Below, piece by piece: positions 1 through 16,951 of a DNA stretch of 16,951 nt (position 1 is the stretch's first letter; the number at the start of each line of letters is the position of its first letter). The notes beneath the pieces were generated by a model. It did no database searches and was not told the DNA's origin. It worked only from the letters and a program-made list of their open reading frames with translations. A program made the translations under genes and the position numbers. The stretch is from Methanobacteriota archaeon (GTDB lineage: Archaea; Thermoplasmatota; DTKX01; VGTL01), in NCBI GenBank assembly GCA_016874675.1, contig VGTL01000071.1, forward strand, positions 1-16,951, written 5' to 3'.

Positions 1-301
1 GACGATAAATATACTTCGCTCGAGCAGAACATTTCCGGAATCCTCGATATCCTTGATGTTGTCAATGCGCCAGGGGCCCCCGCCTAAAAGTTCGACATTC
101 TGTCGAGGTTCGAAGGATTTACACTATTCCCTAGCTTACAACCCCGTATTAGAAATACGAGGCATCTACTCTCCGCATCAATTCCCTTACTAGCTAGTAC
201 GCCCCCGATGCCATCCAACCTCCAATCATCAATCCCCCTGAGCCCTATTAAACCTATCCTTCGCCCCGCCGGCAGCCGGCCCCAATTCCGCGCAAACCAT
301 C

Positions 302-426: not shown

Positions 427-822
427 TCAGCCCCGCCGCAGGCTCTCGATTCTTTCCCCGGTTGTCAGGCCCTCCTGCGACTCGATGTATTTTTCGACCA
501 CCTCCGCCCCGTGCCCCACCGACCCGTGGAAGCTCCCCGGCGACCACAGCCCGTCCTTGCACCACGTCTTCAGCTCGGGGAACCTCTCCCGCAAGAGCCT
601 CGAGCTCCTCCCCTTGATCTTCTTGGCTATCTCGCTCACCGAGTACCTCGGCGGGTACCTGTAAAAGATATGCACGTGCTCCGCCCCGATGGCCATCCTT
701 GTCACCTCAAGACCCATCTCCCCGCATATCTTTAAAATCGCATTCCGGGCGTACTCGCGTATCCCCGGCCTCAATACCGCTCCCCGGTACTTCGGGCAGA
801 ACACGGGATGGTCCGCGAGCAT
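427..822 (-). CDS. tnpA: IS200/IS605-family transposase TnpA (HuH Y1 transposase)
   Basis: The translation has the family hallmarks. FCPKYR is near the N-terminus. HVHIF is the HuH motif. KGRSSRLLRERFPELK, LWSPGSFHGSVG and the C-terminal EKYIESQ follow; the tyrosine in EKYIESQ is the presumed catalytic Tyr. Size (~131 aa from the ATG at 822) fits the family. The ORF track extends it to a TTG at 876; the start is ambiguous. Confidence 0.85.
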   Translation of the reverse strand: MLADHPVFCPKYRGAVLRPGIREYARNAILKICGEMGLEVTRMAIGAEHVHIFYRYPPRYSVSEIAKKIKGRSSRLLRERFPELKTWCKDGLWSPGSFHGSVGHGAEVVEKYIESQEGLTTGERIESLRRG

Positions 823-838
823 CGATGTCGAGTGCCTG

Positions 839-1093
839 TCACGCCTGAGCTTCAATTCCCGTCCCCTCCGTTCCAACCGTCCGGCCGGCGAGCTGGCATA
901 TCCCGGCGACCGGGATCTTCCCCTCCAGCACGTCCAGGACCTTCTCGATGGACACCACCATGTTCACCCATTCCCTCCCGTCCTTTGTAACGAACCTGTC
1001 CGCCAGCAAAAACGCTTCCAAGTTGATGTCGAGCTTCAGCGCGCGCCCGCGTCTGCTGCGCCGCAGATATCCGATGTGATTGACGACCTTCAT
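839..1093 (-). CDS. hypothetical small basic protein (84 aa) immediately upstream of tnpA
   Basis: ATG at 1093 (minus strand) is preceded by the SD-like sequence gtgagg 5 nt upstream and a TATA-like ttcaaatac about 35 nt upstream. Its stop lies 17 nt before the tnpA ATG. I do not recognise the family; it could be an IS-associated accessory ORF or a gene remnant. Confidence 0.3.
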   Translation of the reverse strand: MKVVNHIGYLRRSRRGRALKLDINLEAFLLADRFVTKDGREWVNMVVSIEKVLDVLEGKIPVAGICQLAGRTVGTEGTGIEAQA

Positions 1094-2377: not shown

Positions 2378-5300
2378 ATGAGAGGCAGTACCACTCGTAG
2401 GGCCGTCCTTTTCGCTGCAATGCTGCTACTGGGCAGCGTGGTCATCCTCACCCCGCCGGCCGCGGCCGCCGGCTGGACCAAGACCGACATGGGCATGCCC
2501 TACAGCCCTCTGGGCAGCTACGGCATGATGGGCATCGCCGTCGGCAACGGGGACGGCGTCAACGGGACCGACATATTCACCATCTGCGGCGACAACGCCC
2601 GCATCTACATGTACCGCTACGAGGCCGGCAAGTGGGTGACCACCGATGTGGTCCAGCTCATACGGGGCAGCTCGGTCTACGCCAACGCGATACTGATAGG
2701 CGACGGCGACGACGACGGAAACGACGAGGTGTACGCCACCGCCACGAACTACTCGTCGTTCCCCTACCAGGGCCGCCTGTTCCAGGTCCAAAACGGCACC
2801 AACGGCTGGAAGAGGACCGACTGCGGCGCCACGGGCTACTGGTGCTACGACCTTGCCTCCGGCGACGGCAACCGTGACAGCTCCAAGGAGGTCTACTCGG
2901 CCGACTACGACGGCCACATCTACGAGTACTCGAAGGGCCAGACCTGGAACTCCCAAGACATCGGCAGCTCTCCCGGGTTCGTGTACGGCGGCTACACCTA
3001 CTCCACCCGGATGAACGGTGTGGCGGTGGGCGACGGCGACAACGACGGGAAGCTCGAGGTCTACGGCGCCTCCTCGGACAACCACATCTACATGTTCACC
3101 TACTCGGGCTCGGCCTGGTCCCGGACGGACATGGGGACGGGCGAGACGCCCCAGTACTGGTACTACGGGATGCAGAAGCTCGTCGTGGGCGACGGCGACA
3201 ACGACGGCAAGAACGAGGTGTACGGCGCCTCCTACTTCAACGGGACGATCTGGCGCTACAAGTGGGACACCTCCACCTCCAAGTGGGGCATAACGAAGCT
3301 GGCATCGCTGGGCACCGGGATCACGGCCAACGACATCTGCATCGGGGACGGGAACTCCGACGGGAAAAACGAGATATACGTCGGGACGAGCAACCGGCAG
3401 GTATACGAGGTCCGGCTCAACTCGGGCAACTGGGAGTACTCCGCCGTGGGCTCCGGCAACGGCGCGATAACCGGCGTCGGGACGGGCACCGTGACCGAGG
3501 ACACGAGCGTCCTGGAGGTGTTCGCCTCCTCCGGCGACGGCCACGCCTACGAGTTCTACAACGACGCGGTGCCCCCGGCCAACCCGTACGTGTGGAGCGA
3601 CACGCACCCCGACCAGGGCACCTGGTACGCCAAGAGCAAGGTCCACGTGATGTGGAAGGACGTGGGCTACGACCGCAGCGGCATAGACGGCTACTCGGTC
3701 GATTGGGACAAATCCTCCGAGACGGTCCCCGACGAGGCCAAGGACTTCGAGCAGAGCGTCCACGAGGACACCCGGAACCTCGAGGACGGCCTCTGGTACT
3801 TCCACATCCGCGCCCGCGACAACTCCCTCAACTGGAACAAGACCGCCACGCACTTCGGCCCGATACGCATCGACACCAGACCCCCCGACGGCCTGCAGAT
3901 AACGGTGAACGGCGGCGCCGAGTACACCAACGACAAGCTGGTGACGCTCTCCCTGACGGCCTCGGACGCCGGCTCGGGCGTGGCGTCCATCTCGTTCAGC
4001 AACGACGGCTCCACCTGGAGCGAGTGGGAGTCGTTTTCGGCCACGCGCGGCGGCTGGGACCTCACGGACCCCCGCTTCGGCGCAAACGGCTCGGACGGGC
4101 CCAAGACCGTGCACGCCAGGATAAGGGACCTCGTGGGCAACGAGATCCCAGCCGACAGGCGCGCAAGCGACGGCATCTTCCTGGACCGGGTGGCGCCCCA
4201 GGGGCTCGCCATCGTCGTCAACGGCGACGCCACCTACACCGCCTCCGCACAGGTGTCGCTCTCGCTCAAGGGCTACGACCCCGATCCCGCCTCGGGGCTG
4301 TCCCAGATGTCGTTCAGCAACGACGCCGCCACCTGGGGCGACTGGACCCCCTGGAGCGAGTCGGCCTCCTGGTCCCTGGTCGCCGGCGCCGGGGGCACCG
4401 ATTCCGACGGCACCAAGATAGTGTATTTCCAGCTGCGCGACCGGGCCGGCAACGTCGGGGGCCCGGCCAAGGACTCGATATTCCTGGACCGCCGGGAGCC
4501 CGGGAGCCTGTCCATCCTGATCAACGACGGGGAGGATTACACCAACAACGCCCTCGTGACGCTCAGGATGGACGCCGTGGACCCGGACCCCGGCTCGCAG
4601 CTTGGGGACATGACGCTCGCCAACGCCGAGTCCTCCCTGGGCGACTGGGAGCCCTTCTCCAAGTCCAAGGGCGGCTGGAGCCTCGTCTCCGGGATGGGCG
4701 GCACGGACACCGACGGCGACAAGCTCGTGTACCTCAAGGTCCGCGACAACGCCGGCAACATCGGGGGCCCGGTCAGGGACTCGATATTCCTCGACCGCGT
4801 GAAGCCCTCGGCGCTGGGGATAATGATAAACGGGGGCGCCAAGTACGCCACGAGCCGGGACGTGATGCTGTCGCTTCGGGCCGTAGACGCCGACCCGTCT
4901 TCGGGGATAAGCCGCATGCAGTTCAGCAACGACGGCATCGTGTGGACGGACTGGGAGCCCTACACCCCCGACCGGACCTACACCCTCCCGGCGCCCGACG
5001 GCGAAAAGACCGTCCACTTCCGGGTGCGCGACCGCGCCGGCAACATCGCCGACGCCGTCTCCGCCTCCATAATCCTTGACACCGCCGGGCCGGTGATAGC
5101 CAACGTGCGCGTCTCGGCGCTCACCGACACGACCGCCCTCATAACCTGGACCACGGACGAGGATTCCGACTCGCTTGTCGAGTTCGGACTGAGCGCGAAC
5201 TACGGCTCCTCCGTCCCCGTGAATGACTTCGTCACCTCTCACTCGGTGTGGCTCAAGGGCCTGGCCCCGACCACCACCTACCATTTCCGGGTCCAGTCGC

Positions 5301-7528
5301 GCGATCTTGCGGGCAACCCGCCCACCGTCACGGGCGATTACATCTTCATCACCACGGCCACGCCGGACACCACCCCGCCCTCCATAAGCAACCTGGCGGT
5401 CTCCGGGATAGCCGACACGCTGGCCGTGGTCACCTGGACCACCAACGAGCCCGCCGACAGCGTCGTGCAATACGGCACGGACTCTTCCTACGGCCTGAAG
5501 GTCTCCGACCTCAAGAACTTCGTGCTCAAGCACAGCCTGACGCTGACCAACCTGCAGCAGTCCACCACCTACCGGCTGCGCGCCTACTCCATCGACCCCA
5601 GCGGCAACGGTCCGGCGCAGAGCGAGGAGATATCCTTCACGACGCTCGCCACCCCCGACACCCGGGCGCCGGTCATATCCAACGTCAGGGTCTTCGGCAT
5701 CACCGACCGGGTGGCCGTGGTGACCTGGGAGACCGACGAGCCGGCCGACGGGGCCGTCGAGTTCGGCACCGACGCGTCCTACGGCTCGAAGGCCGCCCAC
5801 GTCGGCATGGGGGCGCTCCACGAGGTCACGTTGCTCAACCTGGTGCCTCGGACGACCTACCACTTCCGCGTGCTCTCGGGCGACGCCAGCGGCAACGGGC
5901 CGGGCGCTAGCGAGGACTTCTCGTTCACGACGCTCGCCGAGCCCGACACGACAGCCCCCAGGATATCGAACCCCCGGGTGGTCGCCGTGACGCGGACCGG
6001 CGCCACGGTGCTCTGGGAGACCGACGAGATAGCCGACGGGTTCGTGGAGTACGGGACGACCACCGCCTATGGCCTGTCCTCCTCCGCCTCGGAGTACTCG
6101 CTCAGCCACAGCCTGCCCCTCAACGGCCTTTCGCCCGACACGCTCTACCACCTGCGCGTGCGCTCTGCGGACCCCAGCGGCAACCTGGGGATCGGCCCCG
6201 ACGTCACCTTCCGCACGCTCAAGACCCCCGCCGGGCAGGACCTCGTCCCGCCGGTGATATCGGCCCTGCAGGTCACCGGCGTCACGAACAGGCTTGCGAT
6301 TGTCATCTGGACGACCGACGAGCCGGCCAACGCCGAGGTCGAGTACGGGACGACCACCGCCTTTGGCCTGCGCGCGAGCGACCCGGCATACACCTACTAC
6401 CACAGCATCACCATCGACAACCTCCAGCCCTCGACGGATTACGTGCTGAGGGTCCGCTCGTTCGACATCCCGGGCAACGGCCCGACCGTCAGCGCCGAGG
6501 TCCGCTTCACCACGAAGGCGACCCCCGACACCACCGCGCCCCGGATAACCGCCGTCACCTTCTCCAACCTGACCAACACGAGCGTTCTTGTGACCTGGAC
6601 CACGGACGAGCCCTCCGACAGCCTGGTCGAATACGGCACGAGCGTGTTCTACGACCGGAACCAGACCTCGAGGCTCTTCGTGCTCGAGCACGCCATCCTC
6701 GTCACCGGCCTGGAGCCGGGCACCACCTACCACTTCCGGGTCCGGTCGACCGACCCCAGCGGGAACACCGCCGACCCGAGCGCCGACCAGAGCTTCACGA
6801 CGCTCAGGAAGTACACCCCGCCGGGCGGCGCGAAGCCGGCCCCGACGGGCGGCGAGTTCCCGTGGCTCTGGGCGGCCATTGCCGTCATAATCGTGGCGCT
6901 CGCCGTCGGGCTGTACGCGGCGAGCCGCTCCGGGCCGAGGAAGCTCCCCCCGAAGGCGCTGGACGAGCCGCGGCCCGAGCCGCGCCCGGAGGCGCCGCCG
7001 GTCGAGGCACGGTCCGCCGCGCTCGAGTCGATATCGGAGATCCCGGTGGCCGAGGCCGAAGTGGTCGAGACGCTCGACATGGACGAGGGCCCGGAGCCAG
7101 CCGGCGTGCGGCCGGCGGCCTTCGCCCCGGCCCCCCGGCCCGCCCCCGAGCCCCTGCGCCACATCCGCTGCCCCTCGTGCAAGACCCGCATCCCGATATA
7201 CAAGGAGGGAGCGCAGCAGATCACCTGCCCGGGCTGCGGAAGGACGGGCCCGTACCGGCCGAAGGCGGTCGGGACGCTCTACGCAACGGAGGCAGCGGCG
7301 CCCGAACCGCCGGCGCCTCCGGCGCCGGCGGCTTCCCCGGTGCACGCGGGCGCACCCTCGCCGATAGGAGAAGCCGCCCCGCAGGGCGGCGCGCAGACGC
7401 CCGTCCGCATGACCCGCTGCTCGGGCTGCGGGAGCCAGGTGCCGATATACAGCGACAACTACCCGGTCAGGATAACCTGCCCCGGCTGCGGAAGGAGCGG
7501 GATGTATAAAGGGCCGAGGAGATACTGA
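2378..7528 (+). CDS. giant secreted cell-surface protein (1716 aa), C-terminally membrane-anchored with a cytoplasmic double zinc-ribbon tail
   Basis: The N-terminus is a signal peptide (MRGSTTRRAVLFAAMLLLGSVVILTPPAAAAG). Four or more FG-GAP-like repeats follow (GDGDDDGNDEVY, VGDGDNDGKLEVYGA, VGDGDNDGKNEVYGA, IGDGNSDGKNEIYVG). Five ~100-aa repeats of the form DR(V/R)xP..L.I.VNGGA.YT......L.L.A.D..SG...M.FSND...W..WE follow. Then come six FN3/purple-acid-phosphatase-N-like repeats (W.TDEP.DS.VEYG......Y.H...L..L.P.T.Y..RV.S.D..GN). A single TM helix (FPWLWAAIAVIIVALAVGLYAA) precedes a Pro-rich tail containing two C-P-x-C-x(14-16)-TCPGCGR zinc ribbons. Codon bias is consistent throughout. Confidence 0.9.
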   Translation: MRGSTTRRAVLFAAMLLLGSVVILTPPAAAAGWTKTDMGMPYSPLGSYGMMGIAVGNGDGVNGTDIFTICGDNARIYMYRYEAGKWVTTDVVQLIRGSSVYANAILIGDGDDDGNDEVYATATNYSSFPYQGRLFQVQNGTNGWKRTDCGATGYWCYDLASGDGNRDSSKEVYSADYDGHIYEYSKGQTWNSQDIGSSPGFVYGGYTYSTRMNGVAVGDGDNDGKLEVYGASSDNHIYMFTYSGSAWSRTDMGTGETPQYWYYGMQKLVVGDGDNDGKNEVYGASYFNGTIWRYKWDTSTSKWGITKLASLGTGITANDICIGDGNSDGKNEIYVGTSNRQVYEVRLNSGNWEYSAVGSGNGAITGVGTGTVTEDTSVLEVFASSGDGHAYEFYNDAVPPANPYVWSDTHPDQGTWYAKSKVHVMWKDVGYDRSGIDGYSVDWDKSSETVPDEAKDFEQSVHEDTRNLEDGLWYFHIRARDNSLNWNKTATHFGPIRIDTRPPDGLQITVNGGAEYTNDKLVTLSLTASDAGSGVASISFSNDGSTWSEWESFSATRGGWDLTDPRFGANGSDGPKTVHARIRDLVGNEIPADRRASDGIFLDRVAPQGLAIVVNGDATYTASAQVSLSLKGYDPDPASGLSQMSFSNDAATWGDWTPWSESASWSLVAGAGGTDSDGTKIVYFQLRDRAGNVGGPAKDSIFLDRREPGSLSILINDGEDYTNNALVTLRMDAVDPDPGSQLGDMTLANAESSLGDWEPFSKSKGGWSLVSGMGGTDTDGDKLVYLKVRDNAGNIGGPVRDSIFLDRVKPSALGIMINGGAKYATSRDVMLSLRAVDADPSSGISRMQFSNDGIVWTDWEPYTPDRTYTLPAPDGEKTVHFRVRDRAGNIADAVSASIILDTAGPVIANVRVSALTDTTALITWTTDEDSDSLVEFGLSANYGSSVPVNDFVTSHSVWLKGLAPTTTYHFRVQSRDLAGNPPTVTGDYIFITTATPDTTPPSISNLAVSGIADTLAVVTWTTNEPADSVVQYGTDSSYGLKVSDLKNFVLKHSLTLTNLQQSTTYRLRAYSIDPSGNGPAQSEEISFTTLATPDTRAPVISNVRVFGITDRVAVVTWETDEPADGAVEFGTDASYGSKAAHVGMGALHEVTLLNLVPRTTYHFRVLSGDASGNGPGASEDFSFTTLAEPDTTAPRISNPRVVAVTRTGATVLWETDEIADGFVEYGTTTAYGLSSSASEYSLSHSLPLNGLSPDTLYHLRVRSADPSGNLGIGPDVTFRTLKTPAGQDLVPPVISALQVTGVTNRLAIVIWTTDEPANAEVEYGTTTAFGLRASDPAYTYYHSITIDNLQPSTDYVLRVRSFDIPGNGPTVSAEVRFTTKATPDTTAPRITAVTFSNLTNTSVLVTWTTDEPSDSLVEYGTSVFYDRNQTSRLFVLEHAILVTGLEPGTTYHFRVRSTDPSGNTADPSADQSFTTLRKYTPPGGAKPAPTGGEFPWLWAAIAVIIVALAVGLYAASRSGPRKLPPKALDEPRPEPRPEAPPVEARSAALESISEIPVAEAEVVETLDMDEGPEPAGVRPAAFAPAPRPAPEPLRHIRCPSCKTRIPIYKEGAQQITCPGCGRTGPYRPKAVGTLYATEAAAPEPPAPPAPAASPVHAGAPSPIGEAAPQGGAQTPVRMTRCSGCGSQVPIYSDNYPVRITCPGCGRSGMYKGPRRY
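3872..5090 (+). repeat. four tandem ~306-nt intragenic repeats encoding ~102-aa Ig-like domains
   Basis: The period is exactly 306 nt between 4445-4493 and 4751-4799, which are about 90% identical at DNA level (gccggcaac.tcgggggcccgg..ca.ggactcgatattcct.gaccgc). A more diverged copy lies upstream at 3578-3871. Confidence 0.7.
5083..6830 (+). repeat. six tandem ~290-nt intragenic repeats encoding FN3/PAP-N-like domains
   Basis: A ~96-aa unit recurs, each ending in the linker TT(L/A)ATPDTT(A/P)P. The DNA-level period is 288-291 nt: compare 5361, 5651, 5939 and 6520, each reading acgccggacacc or acccccgacacc. Confidence 0.7.
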
Positions 7529-8309
7529 CGAATCCGGGCGCCCCCACCGCCCTTCCCCTTCCCGGCCTTGTCGAGCGCCGGATGGCCTCCGCCACCCGGG
7601 CCTTGGCGAACAGGACCGCATTCTCCAGCGGCATCCCCGTGGCCAGCATGCCCGCGACCAGCGCCGACAGCATGCACCCGGCGCCGTGAACGTCCCTCTT
7701 GTGCCTGCGCGCGGCGAGGAAATGGAACTCGCCATCGTAGAACAGGTCGCGGGCGTCCCGCCCGGAGAGATGCCCGCCCTTGAGAAGGACGTTTTGGGCG
7801 CCCATCCGGCTGAGCGCCGCGCAGGCGAGCTTCATGGAATCCAGCCCGTCCATCCTGACGCCCGTGAGCGTCCCGGCCTCGGCGATGTTGGGCGTTACCA
7901 GCAGGGCCGCCGGCAGCAACCTCCTCCGGATGGCGCCCACCAGATCGGGCCGCGCCAGAGGCGCCCCGTGAGTCGCCGAGAGCACCGGGTCGACGACGAG
8001 GGGCGTGCCCTCTTTCCGCATCCTGTCGGCCACCACACTGACGATTCCCGCATCGTGCAGCATGCCCGTCTTGGCCGCTGCAACATCGAAATCGTCGTAC
8101 ACGGCGTCGAGCTGCGCCCGCACGACCCTGGGCGGCACGGGATTGGCGGACCGGACACCCTGCGTGTTCTGCACGGTCACCGCGGTGACCACGGAGCACC
8201 CGTGCACACCGGCGGAAGCGAAGCACCTGAGGTCCATCTGGAGGCCGGCGCCCCCTGACGGGTCGGAACCGGCAATCGTCAGCGCCACCCCGGGCCTCTT
8301 CAGGGGCAC
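7467..8309 (-). CDS. thiD: hydroxymethylpyrimidine/phosphomethylpyrimidine kinase ThiD
   Basis: The N-terminus (VALTIAGSDPSGGAGLQMDLRCFASAGVHGCSVVTAVTVQNTQGV) and later segments (LLKGGHL, THGAGCMLSALVA) align convincingly with bacterial and archaeal ThiD. The start is a GTG at 8309. The last ~20 codons overlap the 3' end of the convergent giant gene (7467-7528). Confidence 0.85.
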   Translation of the reverse strand: MPLKRPGVALTIAGSDPSGGAGLQMDLRCFASAGVHGCSVVTAVTVQNTQGVRSANPVPPRVVRAQLDAVYDDFDVAAAKTGMLHDAGIVSVVADRMRKEGTPLVVDPVLSATHGAPLARPDLVGAIRRRLLPAALLVTPNIAEAGTLTGVRMDGLDSMKLACAALSRMGAQNVLLKGGHLSGRDARDLFYDGEFHFLAARRHKRDVHGAGCMLSALVAGMLATGMPLENAVLFAKARVAEAIRRSTRPGRGRAVGAPGFVSISSALYTSRSFRSRGRLS

Positions 8310-8344: not shown

Positions 8345-8540
8345 GGGGCAAGGGAGCGAGGGAAAAGGCAGCAAGGCAGCAAGGCAGCAAGGCAGCAAGG
8401 GAGAAAGGGAGCCGGGACGCCGCGTTTCAGTCCCCCGTTCCCTTTCACCGTTTCTCCCTTGCTCCCTTGCTGCCTTGCTGCCTTGCTGCCCTGCTGCCCT
8501 GCTGCCCTGCTGCCTTTTCCCTCGCGCCCTGCGCCTTGCC
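8345..8540. repeat. large imperfect GC-rich palindrome built from tandem octamers (GGCAGCAA x4 / TTGCTGCC and CTGCTGCC x6-7)
   Basis: gcgagggaaaagg (8357-8369) is the exact reverse complement of ccttttccctcgc (8515-8527). Between them lie (ggcagcaa)4 on the left and (ttgctgcc)3(ctgctgcc)3 on the right. Near the centre, gggagaaaggg (8399-8409) pairs with ccgtttctccc (8449-8459). The centre is around 8430. It sits between the divergent thiD and DUF116-like genes. Confidence 0.85.
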
Positions 8541-8568
8541 TTCAAATATACCAATAAGTTCATAAAGG

Positions 8569-8585
8569 AAATTATTATAAATAGG
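8569..8585 (+). promoter_or_regulatory. putative TATA box (attattataaatag) for the DUF116-like gene
   Basis: It is the only A/T-rich island between the palindrome and the GTG at 8637. The leader contains a small hairpin, ccgggggtc-ccaaa-gaccccgg, at 8600-8621. Confidence 0.4.
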
Positions 8586-8636
8586 AATCGGTTACCAGAC
8601 CGGGGGTCCCAAAGACCCCGGCCTGTCAGGAAAAGG

Positions 8637-9947
8637 GTGGCACCGGTGCGCAAGAAGACCGCCATAAGCGATACCATGCTGGCGCTCTACAACCGGCTCC
8701 AGCGCGACAAGTTCCGCGCCGTTCCGGCCAGCCGCAGGATTCTCTTCCTGCCCCACTGCCTGCGCAAGCCCCGGGGCTGCCGGGCCGACAACACCCCCGA
8801 CGGGCTGGTCTGCAAGCGCTGCTCCCCGGACTGCTCCGTCAACCGCCTCTCCGCCTACGCCGTTTCAAAGGGCTACCGGTGCTTCATAGTCCCCGGCGGC
8901 GAGATGCTCTTCAACATCGTCGAGCGCGAGAGGCCCGGCGGCATCATCGGCGTCGCCTGCCACCACGAGATGGGCCAGGCGGCCGACCGCATCACCGGCG
9001 GCGAATCATCCGTCCCGTTCGCCTACCAGGGCGTCACGCTCAGAAAGAGCGGCTGCGTCGACACGAAGGTGAACGAGGCGGCCGTGATGGCCGTCATCGA
9101 CCTTTCGGGCCCGTCGCCCGGGGCCGCGCCCTCGGTTCCCTCGGAGGCCGCCGGCCTCTCGCGCCGCACCATCTACAAGCGCGCCGGCGGCGTGGCCGCC
9201 GCGGTGACGGTCGCCCTGGCGGCGATGTTCTTGCTCCTCCCGGGCCTGTTCCCGGCGGCGCTCGAGCGGCCGTCCGCCCCGGAGCCGGCCATATCGTATT
9301 CGTCCAACCCGACCGCCCGGTATTACAAGGACCAGGGGGGCAACCCGTGGGCGGAGGTGAAGGCCACCGTCCACAACGGCGGCCCGGGCGAGGCCCGGAA
9401 CATGCTCGTTCGGGCCACGGCCTTCTACTGCGGCAAGCCCTTCGAGCCCGACAAGGGCGGGGTCCAGGTGGTCCCCCTCAACGGGACGCTGAAGGCGGGC
9501 GGGCGCGCCGAAGCCCTCGTGCAGGTCAGGGTCCACGGGTTCAACGACACCTCGATAACCGTCGAGACGTTGCGCCACAACATGGTGGAGCTCGTCGGCG
9601 TGATCAAGGCGCCCAAGGCGGTCTTCCTGCGCAACGCCGGGGTCACCGGCTACGAGGTCTCCCTGTCCAGCGGCAAGAGGGCCAACCTGAGCGTCCAGGT
9701 CTACAACGAGGGCCCCGGCAGGTCCTCGGGCTCCCTGCGCATCGTCGCCACCTCCTACTCCTCGTTCGGCGTCTGGACGGGCACCGCCGAAGTGGCGCAG
9801 GAGAGGTTCCTGCCTTCCGGCGACACCTGGACGTCGAACTTCCAGGTCAAGGTCTCCGAGCTCGACCCCGGCCACCCGAGGTTCTCGGTCGAGCTCTACG
9901 AGGGCCAGAGCCAGCTCCCCACAGACGTCGCCTGGTTCGACGGTTGA
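8637..9947 (+). CDS. DUF116-like Cys-rich cytoplasmic domain + TM helix + two Ig-like (CARDB-like) extracellular domains
   Basis: The N-terminal region (RRILFLPHCLRKPRGCRADN..CKRCSPDCSVN..GYRCFIVPGG..GIIGVACHHEM) matches my memory of the DUF116 family (COG1852), with moderate confidence. One TM helix follows (VAAAVTVALAAMFLLLPGLF). Two ~100-aa domains carry V.NxGxG motifs typical of CARDB/Ig-like folds. The GTG at 8637 has an SD-like aaagggtgg; an alternative ATG lies at 8676. The ORF-track N-terminal extension from 8337 merely translates the palindrome. Confidence 0.6.
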   Translation: MAPVRKKTAISDTMLALYNRLQRDKFRAVPASRRILFLPHCLRKPRGCRADNTPDGLVCKRCSPDCSVNRLSAYAVSKGYRCFIVPGGEMLFNIVERERPGGIIGVACHHEMGQAADRITGGESSVPFAYQGVTLRKSGCVDTKVNEAAVMAVIDLSGPSPGAAPSVPSEAAGLSRRTIYKRAGGVAAAVTVALAAMFLLLPGLFPAALERPSAPEPAISYSSNPTARYYKDQGGNPWAEVKATVHNGGPGEARNMLVRATAFYCGKPFEPDKGGVQVVPLNGTLKAGGRAEALVQVRVHGFNDTSITVETLRHNMVELVGVIKAPKAVFLRNAGVTGYEVSLSSGKRANLSVQVYNEGPGRSSGSLRIVATSYSSFGVWTGTAEVAQERFLPSGDTWTSNFQVKVSELDPGHPRFSVELYEGQSQLPTDVAWFDG

Positions 9948-9953
9948 GGGGGC

Positions 9954-9994
9954 CGCTTTTTTCATATTCCCAGTAGGAATTTCAACTCTTTTTC
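9954..9994 (+). terminator. oligo-T archaeal-type terminator after the DUF116-like gene
   Basis: gccgcttttttcat lies immediately after the stop at 9947, and a second T5 (ctctttttcc) occurs at 9990. Confidence 0.45.
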
Positions 9995-10000
9995 CAGCAA

Positions 10001-10176
10001 GGAGGAAGGCGCGAGGCGCAGGGCGCAAGGCTTGGGGGGAAAGGCGCAAGGGAAAAGGGACAAGGGGGAAGGGCGGCGGGGACAGCGCGACCCCCCGGGC
10101 CCCTTTCCCCTCGCGCCATGACCCTTGCGCCTTGCGCCCTGCGCCCTGCGCCTTCCCTCGCGTCTTCCCGCGTCCT
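10001..10176. repeat. large imperfect GC-rich palindrome, GGCGCAAG/GGCGCAGG-unit variant
   Basis: The left arm reads ggcgcgaggcgcagggcgcaaggc..ggcgcaagggaaaaggg. The right arm reads cccttgcgccttgcgccctgcgccctgcgccttccctcgcg. The centre is around 10085. It shares the gggaaaagg / caaggg core with the other two elements. Confidence 0.8.
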
Positions 10177-10177
10177 T

Positions 10178-10194
10178 GGCCCCGGCCCGGGGCC
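10178..10194. promoter_or_regulatory. perfect 17-bp palindrome ggccccgg-c-ccggggcc just upstream of the V4R gene TATA box
   Basis: The sequence is reverse-complement symmetric about an odd centre. It lies ~12 bp upstream of the TATA-like aacatttatagc at 10205-10216, the position where a BRE or operator would sit. Confidence 0.3.
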
Positions 10195-10204
10195 CGAGAC
10201 CAAA

Positions 10205-10216
10205 AACATTTATAGC
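10205..10216 (+). promoter_or_regulatory. putative TATA box for the V4R-domain gene
   Basis: The A/T island catttatag lies 43 nt upstream of the GTG at 10259, with ggagcg between them. Confidence 0.4.
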
Positions 10217-10258
10217 AAGCTGCCTTATGTGAAAAACGCCCGGAGCGCGTGATGGCCA

Positions 10259-10726
10259 GTGATTGACGAGGACGGCCGGTTCGTGAAGTACCGCAGGACC
10301 GACATCATCGCCGTGCGGCGGCTGGAGGAATCGTTCATGCACGACGCCGCCTACGGCCTGCTCTTCCGGGCCGGCCAGGCTGTCGGCTCGCGCATCGCGC
10401 GCAACGCCCGGCCCTACAAGCAGCAGTACTTCGAGGCCGCCCGGCGCATGCTCATCGACGAGGGCTGGGTCCGGGACATCCAGTTCCAAGACGACCTCGT
10501 GACCGCCGCCGCCTCCATCGAGACCGAGAAGGGCGCCGCCAGGAACTCCTGCCACATGCTCCGGGGAATTGTCGCCAAGGTCTACGAGGGCTACTTCGGC
10601 AAGCTCATGAACTGCGCCGAGTCGGAGTGCGAGAGCACCGGCCGGCCCCGCTGCGTCCTCAAGGTGAGCTTCCAAAACAACGGCGACAGGACGCGCAAGG
10701 CCAATGGGAACAACGCCATGCAGTGA
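10259..10726 (+). CDS. V4R (vinyl-4-reductase-like) domain protein
   Basis: The C-terminal sequence AESECESTGRPRCVLKV fits the V4R signature E-x-x-C-x-x-x-G-x-x-x-C-x-h-x-h. Size (155 aa) fits this archaeal small-molecule-binding family. The start is a GTG. An in-frame upstream ATG at 10252 stops after 4 codons. Confidence 0.55.
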   Translation: MIDEDGRFVKYRRTDIIAVRRLEESFMHDAAYGLLFRAGQAVGSRIARNARPYKQQYFEAARRMLIDEGWVRDIQFQDDLVTAAASIETEKGAARNSCHMLRGIVAKVYEGYFGKLMNCAESECESTGRPRCVLKVSFQNNGDRTRKANGNNAMQ

Positions 10727-10732
10727 CCTATT

Positions 10733-10897
10733 GGGAGCAAGGGAGAAAGGCAGCAAGGCAGCAAGGCAGCAAGGCAGCAAGGCAGCAAGGCAGAAAGGCA
10801 GAAAGGGAGGCAGGAAGGCAGCAAGGGGGGACGTGAAGAGCCGTCGTTCCGCTGCCCTGCTGCCTTTCTGCCTTCCTGCCTTGCTGCCTTTCCCTAG
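10733..10897. repeat. large imperfect GC-rich palindrome, GGCAGCAA-unit variant (asymmetric; left arm has ~4 extra units)
   Basis: The left arm reads gggagcaagggagaaagg(cagcaagg)5 cagaaagg cagaaaggg aggcaggaaggcagcaagggggg. The right arm reads cgctgccctgctgcctttctgccttcctgccttgctgcctttccctag. The outer gggagaaaggcagcaagg pairs with ccttgctgcctttccc. It fills the whole gap between the convergent stops at 10726 and 10894. Confidence 0.85.
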
Positions 10898-11283
10898 CCG
10901 TACCCGTCCATCTCCGTCCGGATGGCCGTGGACCTTGAGACGCACTCGGTGCGGTGGCGGATGAAGTCCTTTATCGTGTTGCGGAGGACGGTGGTGTTGA
11001 CCTCGCCGACTATGTCGCCGATGGGGCGGCCGCGGCAGAAGAACTTGATGGTCGGGACGCCCATTATGCCAAAGCGCGCCGCGAGCGTCGCGTGGGCGGC
11101 GGCGTTCAGGCGCGTGAAGCGGGCCTCCGCGCCCATCTCCGCCGAGAGCGCCTCGTACACGGGCCTCAGGGCGGCGCAGTTGGGGCAGGTGTCCGTGTAG
11201 AACTCGACGACCACGAGGCGGTCCCCCTGCTCCAGCGCCTCGCCGAAGGAGGTGGGGTCGAGCTCCAGGACGGTGCCGGCCAT
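10894..11283 (-). CDS. thioredoxin (CPNC active-site variant)
   Basis: VVVEFYTDTCPNCAAL and GVPTIKFF show thioredoxin-fold spacing. The protein is 129 aa. The ATG at 11283 has a TATA-like ggatatatagtg 24-34 nt upstream on its own strand. Confidence 0.8.
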   Translation of the reverse strand: MAGTVLELDPTSFGEALEQGDRLVVVEFYTDTCPNCAALRPVYEALSAEMGAEARFTRLNAAAHATLAARFGIMGVPTIKFFCRGRPIGDIVGEVNTTVLRNTIKDFIRHRTECVSRSTAIRTEMDGYG

Positions 11284-16721: not shown

Positions 16722-16951
16722 ATGCCGATCTGCCAGTATTGTGGAGCCCCGATGGAAGGAATAGTCTGCCCGAGGTGCGGGGGCCAGGCCACGCCCGCTC
16801 CGGCCTCCAGCCCGCCGCCCGCATACGGCCAGGCGCCCTACGCGCCGCAGTACCCGCCGCAGCAGGCCCCGCCGCAGTACCCGCCCCAGCAGGCCCCGCC
16901 GCAGTACCCGCCGCAGCAGGCCCCGCCGCGGTACCCGCCCCAGCAGGTCCC
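16722..16951 (+). CDS. zinc-ribbon protein with tandem QYPPQQAPP repeats (3' partial; runs off the window)
   Basis: An ATG at 16722 opens with MPICQYCGAPMEGIVCPRCGG, then a Pro-rich stretch, then at least three and a half 27-nt repeats in frame. There is no stop before the window end. Confidence 0.55.
   Translation, partial: MPICQYCGAPMEGIVCPRCGGQATPAPASSPPPAYGQAPYAPQYPPQQAPPQYPPQQAPPQYPPQQAPPRYPPQQV
16848..16951 (+). repeat. 27-bp tandem repeat cagtacccgcc(g/c)cagcaggccccgccg (at least 3.8 copies, truncated by the window edge)
   Basis: Copies lie at 16848-16874, 16875-16901 and 16902-16928, with a partial copy at 16929 onward. Each encodes QYPPQQAPP. Confidence 0.85.

Follow-up and report, generated by a model that had tools for sequence, protein, structure and literature searches.

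Purine-first extragenic palindromes with tandem-repeat stems, a dispersed family and probable boundary hairpins in a Thermoplasmatota archaeon

Three consecutive intergenic gaps of an archaeal contig are each occupied by a long GC-rich palindrome whose arms consist of tandem repeats of seven or eight nucleotides, which raises the question of whether such structures are local accidents, pieces of a mobile family, or signals that mark the boundaries of genes. The contig is VGTL01000071.1 of assembly GCA_016874675.1 (Methanobacteriota archaeon; Thermoplasmatota in GTDB), 16,951 nt long and referred to in full as the window, and the palindromes (E1, E2, and E3, in order of position) alternate with a DUF116-domain gene and a V4R-domain gene (Table 1). 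The reading favored here, at a probability of roughly 0.65, is that they are copies of a superfamily resembling repetitive extragenic palindromes (REPs) and bacterial interspersed mosaic elements (BIMEs), evolved by slippage and, to judge from structure and position, probably acting as boundary hairpins.

All three are confirmed as genuine, strong imperfect palindromes. At the places singled out in the preliminary description, an account of the window made from its letters alone, Tandem Repeats Finder arrays coincide with inverted-repeat arms (Table 1), and the RNA folds of E1, E2, and E3 reach -142.6, -128.7, and -98.1 kcal/mol (z = -11.4, -5.5, and -5.9), each stronger than all of 200 shuffles. 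The 18-mer GGCAGCAAGGCAGCAAGG, equal to two repeat units, occurs 22 times in the window with at most three mismatches, always within E1 or E3, against 0.01 occurrences expected. The assignment of the gaps as divergent, tandem, and convergent is borne out by Pfam and the JGI gene calls, and the oligo-T signal said to come before the tandem-gap element is indeed present, as a small hairpin with T6 upstream of E2. Some details had to be revised. E2 is built not from an octamer variant but from the heptamers GGCGCAA/GGCGCAG with period 7; E1 is the proposed octamer palindrome in its inner arms only, the outer arms being heptamer-like, which makes it composite; and caagggagaaagg, taken for a core shared by E1 and E3, is only a unit variant, which lies innermost in the left arm of the former and outermost in that of the latter. 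The conserved core of the family lies instead at the hairpin tip, where E3 carries a diverged version, GGACGTGAAGAGCCGTCGTTCC.

Whether the three stand alone was answered by a metagenome scan with the palindrome pattern GGCAGCAAGGCAGCAAGG-N45-75-CTGCCYTGCTGCC. A further 55 stretches on 44 contigs matched (GC 0.60–0.70), a lower bound, since the window itself matches (on both strands at E1) yet its own contig is missing among the matches. They come from Ga0194111, Ga0194112, Ga0194125, and Ga0194126, the JGI prefix series of the window, and from Ga0233425; the first four are presumably Lake Tanganyika water-column samples, the site being named in none of the search outputs. A simple arm detector resolved 89 elements at 79 distinct sites in about 500 kb of loci, and of 107 large inverted repeats returned by a unit-blind detector all but 2 belong to this class, including, in the same contigs, the further unit types GGGCAGC and GGGTGCR, likewise purine-first. 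The preliminary description had set a dispersed family resembling REPs or miniature inverted-repeat transposable elements (MITEs) against the possibility that no copies exist beyond these three and that relatives have nothing comparable; the count of at least 79 sites, together with analogs in the same gaps of syntenic relatives, speaks for the family.

The copies share an anatomy of which the most informative features, namely purine-first polarity, a conserved center, and turnover of units at kept positions, went unmentioned in that description. Elements measure 78–422 bp with arms of 20–217 nt, and the unequal arms it had remarked on are general, differing at least two-fold at 23 of the 79 sites. 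The unit CAGCAAGG was counted 258 times in left arms and 290 times in right arms. The purine-rich arm is 5' in all 89 elements and the pyrimidine-rich arm in none; because a palindrome reads alike on both strands, this polarity is intrinsic and does not depend on orientation. Many copies have an asymmetric center, GGACGACGG/CCGTCGTCC, and identical center variants, AAGG-GGACGGCCGTCGTC-CCTT and GGTACGGAACGACCCGTCGTCC, recur at unlinked sites in both orientations, each derived from the perfect form GGACGACGG-CCGTCGTCC. Of 17 composite arms, 16 have the heptamers outside, none has the octamers outside, and one is mixed. Element ends are either GAAAGG...CCTTTC or heptamer units and fade into degenerate units, so that the boundaries are too uncertain for short target-site duplications to be called. 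The architecture is an optional (GGCGCAR)n, then (GGCAGCAA)n, a short asymmetric center derived from GGACGACGG-CCGTCGTCC, the complementary octamer arm, and, where present, the complementary heptamer arm. Since the same idiosyncratic unit consensus, center variants, and module order are found at unlinked sites, the copies must derive from one another and not from independent local expansion.

A separate accessory hairpin, GAAGACCGC-N-GCGGTCTTC, often adjoining GGCGAGC-TTC-GCTCGCC, recurs beside or inside the large palindromes and gives the intergenic regions a mosaic appearance (Table 1).

Outside these metagenomes, a scan of genome contigs with the 18-mer yielded at least 76 bacterial loci; those listed were chance matches or simple octamer arrays in direct orientation, without a palindrome among them, and the scan was therefore uninformative. 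Viral contigs gave no match to the palindrome pattern. Over 140 kb, no element matched an Rfam 15 family at the gathering threshold; in E-value mode the only matches, found on both strands, were sub-threshold ones to generic hairpin models of miRNA precursors. The alternative of a structured small RNA, also raised in the preliminary description, gained no support as a small-RNA gene and was rejected on context. Neither repeat 16-mer was found in a literature search, nor was any archaeal REP- or MITE-like palindrome with tandem stems, and the family, which is large and new to the literature searched, is apparently undescribed.

The family is dispersed and intergenic, with highly variable numbers of arm units. 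Gene prediction relied on codon usage learned from the JGI calls; with a gene overlap of at most 2 nt allowed, 76 of the 79 sites are fully intergenic. Occupancy is similar in tandem (42/213), convergent (13/54), and divergent (13/60) gaps, so that no gap type is preferred, and the elements are spread over the three types in the proportions of gaps generally, as expected if they are not context-specific. Among gaps of at least 100 nt, 19 of 29 convergent, 51 of 100 tandem, and 15 of 57 divergent ones are occupied, a comparison confounded by the length that divergent gaps need for two promoters. In tandem gaps the element mostly lies 0–25 nt past the upstream stop codon and leaves 45–300 nt before the next start; a convergent gap is filled by it between the two stops; and in divergent gaps at least 36 nt are free on each side. 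In the window, the gene for a 1716-aa protein and thiD overlap by about 60 nt at their 3' ends, a convergent pair without room for a palindrome, unlike V4R/thioredoxin.

Placement also bears on the idea that these are integron-type attC recombination sites ending gene cassettes, which are likewise imperfect palindromes directly 3' of many genes with a conserved structure and a lineage-specific sequence. The neighbors, however, are housekeeping genes that do not all point the same way; of the 68 sites with genes on both sides, 13 lie amid divergent promoters; a same-strand cassette array is absent; and no integrase was found in the window. On this context, rather than on attC core motifs, the reading was rejected and is hardly credible.

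How persistent the elements are was judged from syntenic contigs of other environments, found through DUF116 homologs and covering two gaps, DUF116/V4R (tandem) and V4R/thioredoxin (convergent). The window has the heptamer GGCGCAR (E2) in the former and the octamer GGCAGCAA (E3) in the latter. In L137 (64% DUF116 identity) the corresponding units are GGGTGGAA/CCACCCTT and CGGGCAAT/ATTGCCCG, the second with center GACGACGGCGTCCGTCC. L139–L141 (57%) and L142 (65%) both have a heptamer type like E2 in the first gap, followed in the second by CGGTAAAC/GGTTTACC and GACAAGTT/AACTTG.., respectively. In L144 (46%) the first gap is only 67 nt and holds no element, and the second contains GGCAACA/GGGAGCA heptamers around the center GGGAACGACGG. 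The V4R/thioredoxin gap thus holds a purine-first palindrome in all five lineages, with differing units. Complementarity between a lineage's own arms in this gap was 36, 9, 28, 31, and 42, compared with 5–18 for arms paired across lineages; pairing is good in four of the five lineages despite DUF116 identities down to 46%. The folds in L139 (z = -3.4) and L142 (z = -5.9) are significant; the L137 copy is degenerate (z = -0.9), while the fold in its other gap is significant. A Thermoplasmatota metagenome-assembled genome (MAG) from NCBI, L143 (DUF116 45%), is without such a palindrome. Exact look-ups of the V4R protein for more strains found nothing on record. L143 also contains a 541-nt uncalled stretch (17240–17780) of 81% GC with long G runs, perhaps coding sequence of low complexity or a fault of the assembly.

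The palindromes persist in position while their two arms co-vary, and since neutral DNA would be randomized at such divergence, the kept palindromes need an explanation. Three remain: selection for pairing, active correction from arm to arm, or repeated re-colonization of the same gaps. The same comparison weakens the suggestion that the elements are double-stranded binding-site arrays for a nucleoid, chromatin, or boundary protein that reads AAGG-N4, two opposed arrays in which the hairpin is irrelevant. Such a protein would account for a GG-containing motif at regular 7–8-bp spacing, for a unit number free to vary, for the same motif in both arms on opposite strands, and for elements amid divergent promoters. 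It would, however, have to co-evolve with quite different units at the same sites in relatives (CGGTAAAC, GACAAGTT, CGGGCAAT) and cope with several unit types within one genome, and no candidate protein was identified, which makes this reading rather improbable.

Change within the elements can be followed in a few pairs of loci. L128 and L135, from two samples, share 2.3 kb at 98.7% identity, and in a 368-column alignment all differences fall within the element (indels of 5, 3, and 11 nt and about 9 substitutions), whereas 61 aligned columns of the downstream flank are identical; the differences in the element roughly cover the approximately 30 expected from 98.7% over 2.3 kb. In L116 and L136 (82–89% identity) the same gene has retained an element at its 3' end, the interior of which has been rewritten. 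Slippage-type variation, which the preliminary description had predicted between strains, is supported by these few cases, to which assembly error inside the repeats may contribute; the copy numbers of E2 and E3 are the same in two samples. Apparent length differences in L096/L103, and part of those in L128/L135, were discarded, being due to loci cut at their ends. L116 has in addition a 2.8-kb gene (L116 1681–4950 against L136 4025–4131) between the promoter and the neighbor's 3' palindrome, and this extra gene is followed at its 3' end by an octamer-type palindrome of its own, as though the two traveled together.

Repeats of this type are difficult to assemble, and the palindromes could in principle be assembly errors or chimeric joins at simple repeats. 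Three Logan contigs (L002, L003, and L005) end at one base, window position 10868 in the right arm of E3, and only Logan contigs of about 1.5 kb are on record for the DUF116 gene, which means that E1 and E2 cut them off; multi-copy repeats are where short-read contigs usually break. Against an artifact, the window is 100% identical to the JGI contig Ga0194126_10005698 over the 16,058 overlapping bases of the fetched locus (L001), and L004, a separate JGI assembly made from a second sample, is 99.94% identical, running without gaps across E2 and E3 and reproducing both base for base. Other sites likewise came out identical from independent samples and assemblers (L083/L093, L090/L126, and L113/L114), and relatives from other sites, as well as one ENA assembly, carry analogous elements in the same gaps. 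An artifact is accordingly a negligible prospect. Given that the repeats fragment short-read assemblies, elements are to be expected at the ends of MAG contigs in this clade.

The host, an uncultured freshwater archaeon, is indicated by several lines. NCBI protein MBM4249660.1, from a MAG labeled Euryarchaeota archaeon, is identical to a transposase encoded in the window, a DUF116 homolog of 45% identity is labeled Thermoplasmatota archaeon, and TATA-like AT-rich hexamers peak 26–45 nt upstream of start codons, which fits an archaeon. At L119, Rfam matches a tRNA, uncalled by ARAGORN, with its full 71-position model spread across 124 nt (Table 1), which suggests an intron of about 50 nt and would again fit an archaeal host.

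Table 1. Positions of the palindromes, neighboring genes, and other features; positions refer to the window unless a locus is named.
Feature	Position	Strand	Remarks
E1	8345-8540	.	Composite palindrome amid divergent thiD/DUF116 promoters
E1 outer arms	8345-8366 and 8517-8540		Heptamer-like and degenerate
E1 octamer arms	8367-8412; 8457-8516		(GGCAGCAA)n; (TTGCTGCC/CTGCTGCC)n
E1 center	8413-8456
E1 tandem arrays	8365-8412; 8457-8516		Period 8; 6.0 and 7.5 copies
E1 inverted-repeat arms	8351-8412 / 8469-8530		62 nt, 89% complementary
E2	9997-10176	.	Heptamer palindrome GGCGCAR/YTGCGCC; 3' of DUF116 stop and T6, 5' of V4R promoter
E2 tandem arrays	9997-10031; 10123-10154		Period 7
E2 inverted-repeat arms	10004-10068 / 10092-10156		65 nt, 78% complementary
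E3	10733-10897	.	Octamer palindrome occupying the convergent V4R/thioredoxin gap
E3 left arm	10733-10826
E3 center	~10826-10851		GGGGGGACGTGAAGAGCCGTCGTTCC
E3 right arm	10851-10896
E3 tandem arrays	10736-10826; 10851-10890		Period 8; 11.9 and 5.0 copies
E3 inverted-repeat arms	10745-10786 / 10851-10892		42 nt, 93% complementary
thiD, phosphomethylpyrimidine kinase	7467-8288	-	PF08543, E = 3e-78; JGI gene call coordinates; left of E1
DUF116-domain protein	8637-9947	+	436 aa; between E1 and E2; Pfam and JGI gene call
Small hairpin and T6	9941-9964	+	Conventional oligo-T termination signal right at the DUF116 stop, upstream of E2
V4R-domain protein	10259-10726	+	Between E2 and E3; Pfam and JGI gene call
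Thioredoxin	10894-11283	-	Stop codon adjoins E3; Pfam and JGI gene call
1716-aa protein	2378-7528	+	FG-GAP, fibronectin-III, and purple-acid-phosphatase-N repeats; weak C-terminal double-zinc-ribbon match
27-nt tandem repeat	16843-16951		4 copies, 93% matches; runs off the window end
Y1 transposase gene	427-876	-	IS200 TnpA 114 bits; RAYT model 18 bits (cut-off 80)
ORF upstream of Y1	839-1093	-	Open reading frame (ORF), ~85-93 aa among lineages
Y1/ORF pair in relatives	L137 84-771; L139 72-747; L145 9736-10429
Hairpin downstream of Y1	~140-175	-	TAGATGCYTCG-loop-CGGRGTT..AAGCTAGGGAA
Same hairpin in relatives	L137 ~58; L139 ~46; L145 10437, 10832, 12539, 13480
Accessory hairpin	L082 7686; L088 6713; L110 3882; L122 609; L130 3210; L134 5436; L139 9776 and 9807		GAAGACCGC-N-GCGGTCTTC
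tRNA match	L119 1811-1934		Rfam

How copies reached unlinked sites leads to the most serious competitor of a boundary function, namely that the elements are purely selfish, MITE- or REPIN-like (REPIN, a REP doublet forming a hairpin), moved by a transposase in trans and without a host function, their kept positions reflecting the few permissive gaps of a compact genome. A high copy number, with a common center and module order at unlinked sites, is what this reading predicts, as are the absence of gap-type preference per gap, the random orientation of the center, arm mismatches without strand bias, and the extra L116 gene that brings its own element; bacterial REPs are similarly distributed (PMC3733652). 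Other observations speak against it. None of six overlapping locus pairs has an empty site, and there is no cognate transposase or autonomous parent among the Y1 matches in about 500 kb, both of which also count against transposition as the way in which the favored superfamily spread. Furthermore, with all five lineages occupied at V4R/thioredoxin and four well paired, the selfish reading needs repeated re-colonization or active maintenance. It is possible but not probable.

The one mobiliser candidate at hand, the Y1 (IS200-like) transposase of the window, is rejected on present evidence. It scores far better with the IS200 TnpA model than with that of the REP-associated tyrosine transposases (RAYTs) (Table 1), is unflanked by elements, and has no large inverted repeat nearby according to the unit-blind detector, the hairpin downstream of it being unrelated. 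A tblastn search with its protein found one Y1 gene in about 500 kb, with ends unlike the elements; other transposase families were not searched there.

That hairpin lies directly downstream of Y1 in every lineage, unrelated to the palindrome family, and at L145 a related motif, CATGCCTCG..CGGGGTTCGTGACTTTCGT, recurs amid one-strand small toxin-antitoxin genes; motifs of the L145 type could be the true cognate repeat of the Y1 transposase, or a signal of a cassette array. Synteny of the Y1 gene and its upstream ORF extends to at least four further lineages. Among the window, L137, and L139, pairwise identity of the Y1 protein is 72–85%, a conservation equal to that of adjacent host genes, and the L145 protein is 68% identical to that of the window; its close homologs fall in clusters of 1–8, whereas distant IS200 copies of ANME (anaerobic methanotrophic archaea) and Methanosarcinales occur in clusters of 44–72. 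To judge from these sequences, the Y1 gene seems to have been passed on vertically and to be domesticated, not mobile.

Returning to the boundary-hairpin reading, a mechanism can be proposed in which the arms would lengthen and shorten through replication slippage of the 7–8-nt units, with arm complementarity upheld by template switching from arm to arm or by selection. Slippage combined with such correction would leave the orthologous gaps of diverged relatives with good palindromes of different units. A transcript arriving from either side would include the purine-rich arm first, and the pyrimidine-rich arm would then pair back to form a long boundary hairpin. Hybrids of pyrimidine RNA with purine DNA are the weakest class and those of purine RNA with pyrimidine DNA the strongest, so the distal arm, held by an intrinsically weak hybrid, should be the easiest for the hairpin to strip from the template. 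A pyrimidine-first palindrome would be expected to work poorly, and none was observed. An element of this kind may serve as an orientation-independent transcription barrier and a 3'-end hairpin, in the manner of bacterial REPs and BIMEs, and could be tolerated or retained in the interval from a stop codon to the next promoter. The position after stop codons, the persistence in relatives, and the polarity favor such a function. A hairpin without a U-tract gave 59% termination in a reporter of Haloferax volcanii, a GC-rich archaeon (PMC7237163).

Several observations weigh against a dedicated role at the RNA level and must be set beside this reading. Elements occur in divergent promoter gaps as frequently as in other gaps, at the per-gap frequencies given above. 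Taken on the upstream gene's sense strand, mismatches of the arms do not favor G:U over A:C (54 vs 74, p = 0.09), and the asymmetric center is random in its orientation to the upstream gene (6 vs 9). Runs of T5 or longer lie within -10 to +30 nt of just 14 of 200 element ends, so that the intrinsic-terminator arrangement of a hairpin directly followed by a T-run is not what the family displays, and the ordinary T6 signal precedes E2 instead of following it. The arms are often very unequal, and much of an arm may stay unpaired. Densities are biased upward, the loci having been picked for containing an element. Finally, lineage-specific families that re-insert in the same permissive gaps could mimic positional conservation. 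A bolder formulation, in which the elements are an undescribed archaeal gene-boundary class of self-renewing purine-first palindromes, maintained by slippage and arm-to-arm copying around GACGACGG/CCGTCGTC and kept over deep divergence as bidirectional barriers, is put forward as a speculative proposal with the odds well against it.

One further tandem repeat of the window, of 27 nt and situated at its end (Table 1), belongs to coding sequence: the ORF around it, with its start at 16752, opens with a CPRCG zinc-ribbon-like N-terminus, which the encoded PQYPPQQAP repeats follow.

Should the bolder formulation hold, it would amount to a hairpin-based, U-tract-independent system of termination or insulation in a GC-rich archaeon. 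The elements are in any case candidates for direction-independent formation of transcript ends in a genome of this kind, where T-runs are rare. The retention of polarity, center, and position amid the turnover of units also offers a natural experiment on how palindromes are kept up, by selection for pairing or by template-switch correction.

Extragenic palindromic repeats of the REP, BIME, and MITE kinds are well studied in bacteria; for Thermoplasmatota-type archaea we know of no comparable high-copy family, nor of one anywhere with microsatellite-like stems. The likeness of the present elements to REPs, REPINs, and BIMEs lies in their high-copy extragenic distribution (79 sites or more, with 76 lying entirely between genes), their capacity to form hairpins, a lineage-specific sequence, and a location mostly downstream of genes. 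With BIMEs in particular they share a mosaic of modules, here the heptamer arm, the octamer arm, the center, and accessory hairpins such as GAAGACCGC..GCGGTCTTC. REPs proper are bacterial, 20–40 bp long, and tagged by GTAG or CGTC at one end, and those of the GTAG type flank a RAYT gene (PMC3733652). In contrast, the elements described here are about 80–420 bp long with stems of tandem 7–8-nt units in an archaeal host, CGTC is confined to the tip of the hairpin, within the central GACGACGG/CCGTCGTC core, and no elements flank the sole Y1 gene found.

Hairpin MITEs such as Correia, ERIC, RPE, Nezha, and Chunjie, among them some with internal tandem repeats, are close in size (100–400 bp), in inverted symmetry over the whole element, in intergenic location, and in being co-transcribed with their neighbors. 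Terminal inverted repeats are trivially present here, the whole element being an inverted repeat. The stems, however, are microsatellite-like, and neither a same-ended autonomous parent among the Y1 matches nor an empty site in the six locus pairs was found. The comparison to REPs and MITEs made in the preliminary description is therefore apt in its suffix "-like": high copy number and extragenic location agree, whereas the size, end tag, and RAYT that define REPs and the parent that defines MITEs do not.

Terminator hairpins of GC-rich prokaryotes are similar in being GC-rich and placed right after stop codons, often in common to convergent genes. They differ in being short, of unique sequence, and usually followed by a U-tract, while the elements are long, form a repeat family mostly without T-tracts, and also occur at divergent promoters. 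The closest parallel to the stems themselves is provided by the cyanobacterial short tandemly repeated repetitive (STRR) sequences and other intergenic heptamer arrays, which likewise consist of tandem 7-nt units with variable copy number, confined to intergenic regions at many loci. For the TAACTGA repeats of Beggiatoaceae, 169 direct sets against one indirect are reported (PMC4679880). Those arrays are direct, whereas each array of the present family has its reverse complement as a partner on the far side of a conserved center.

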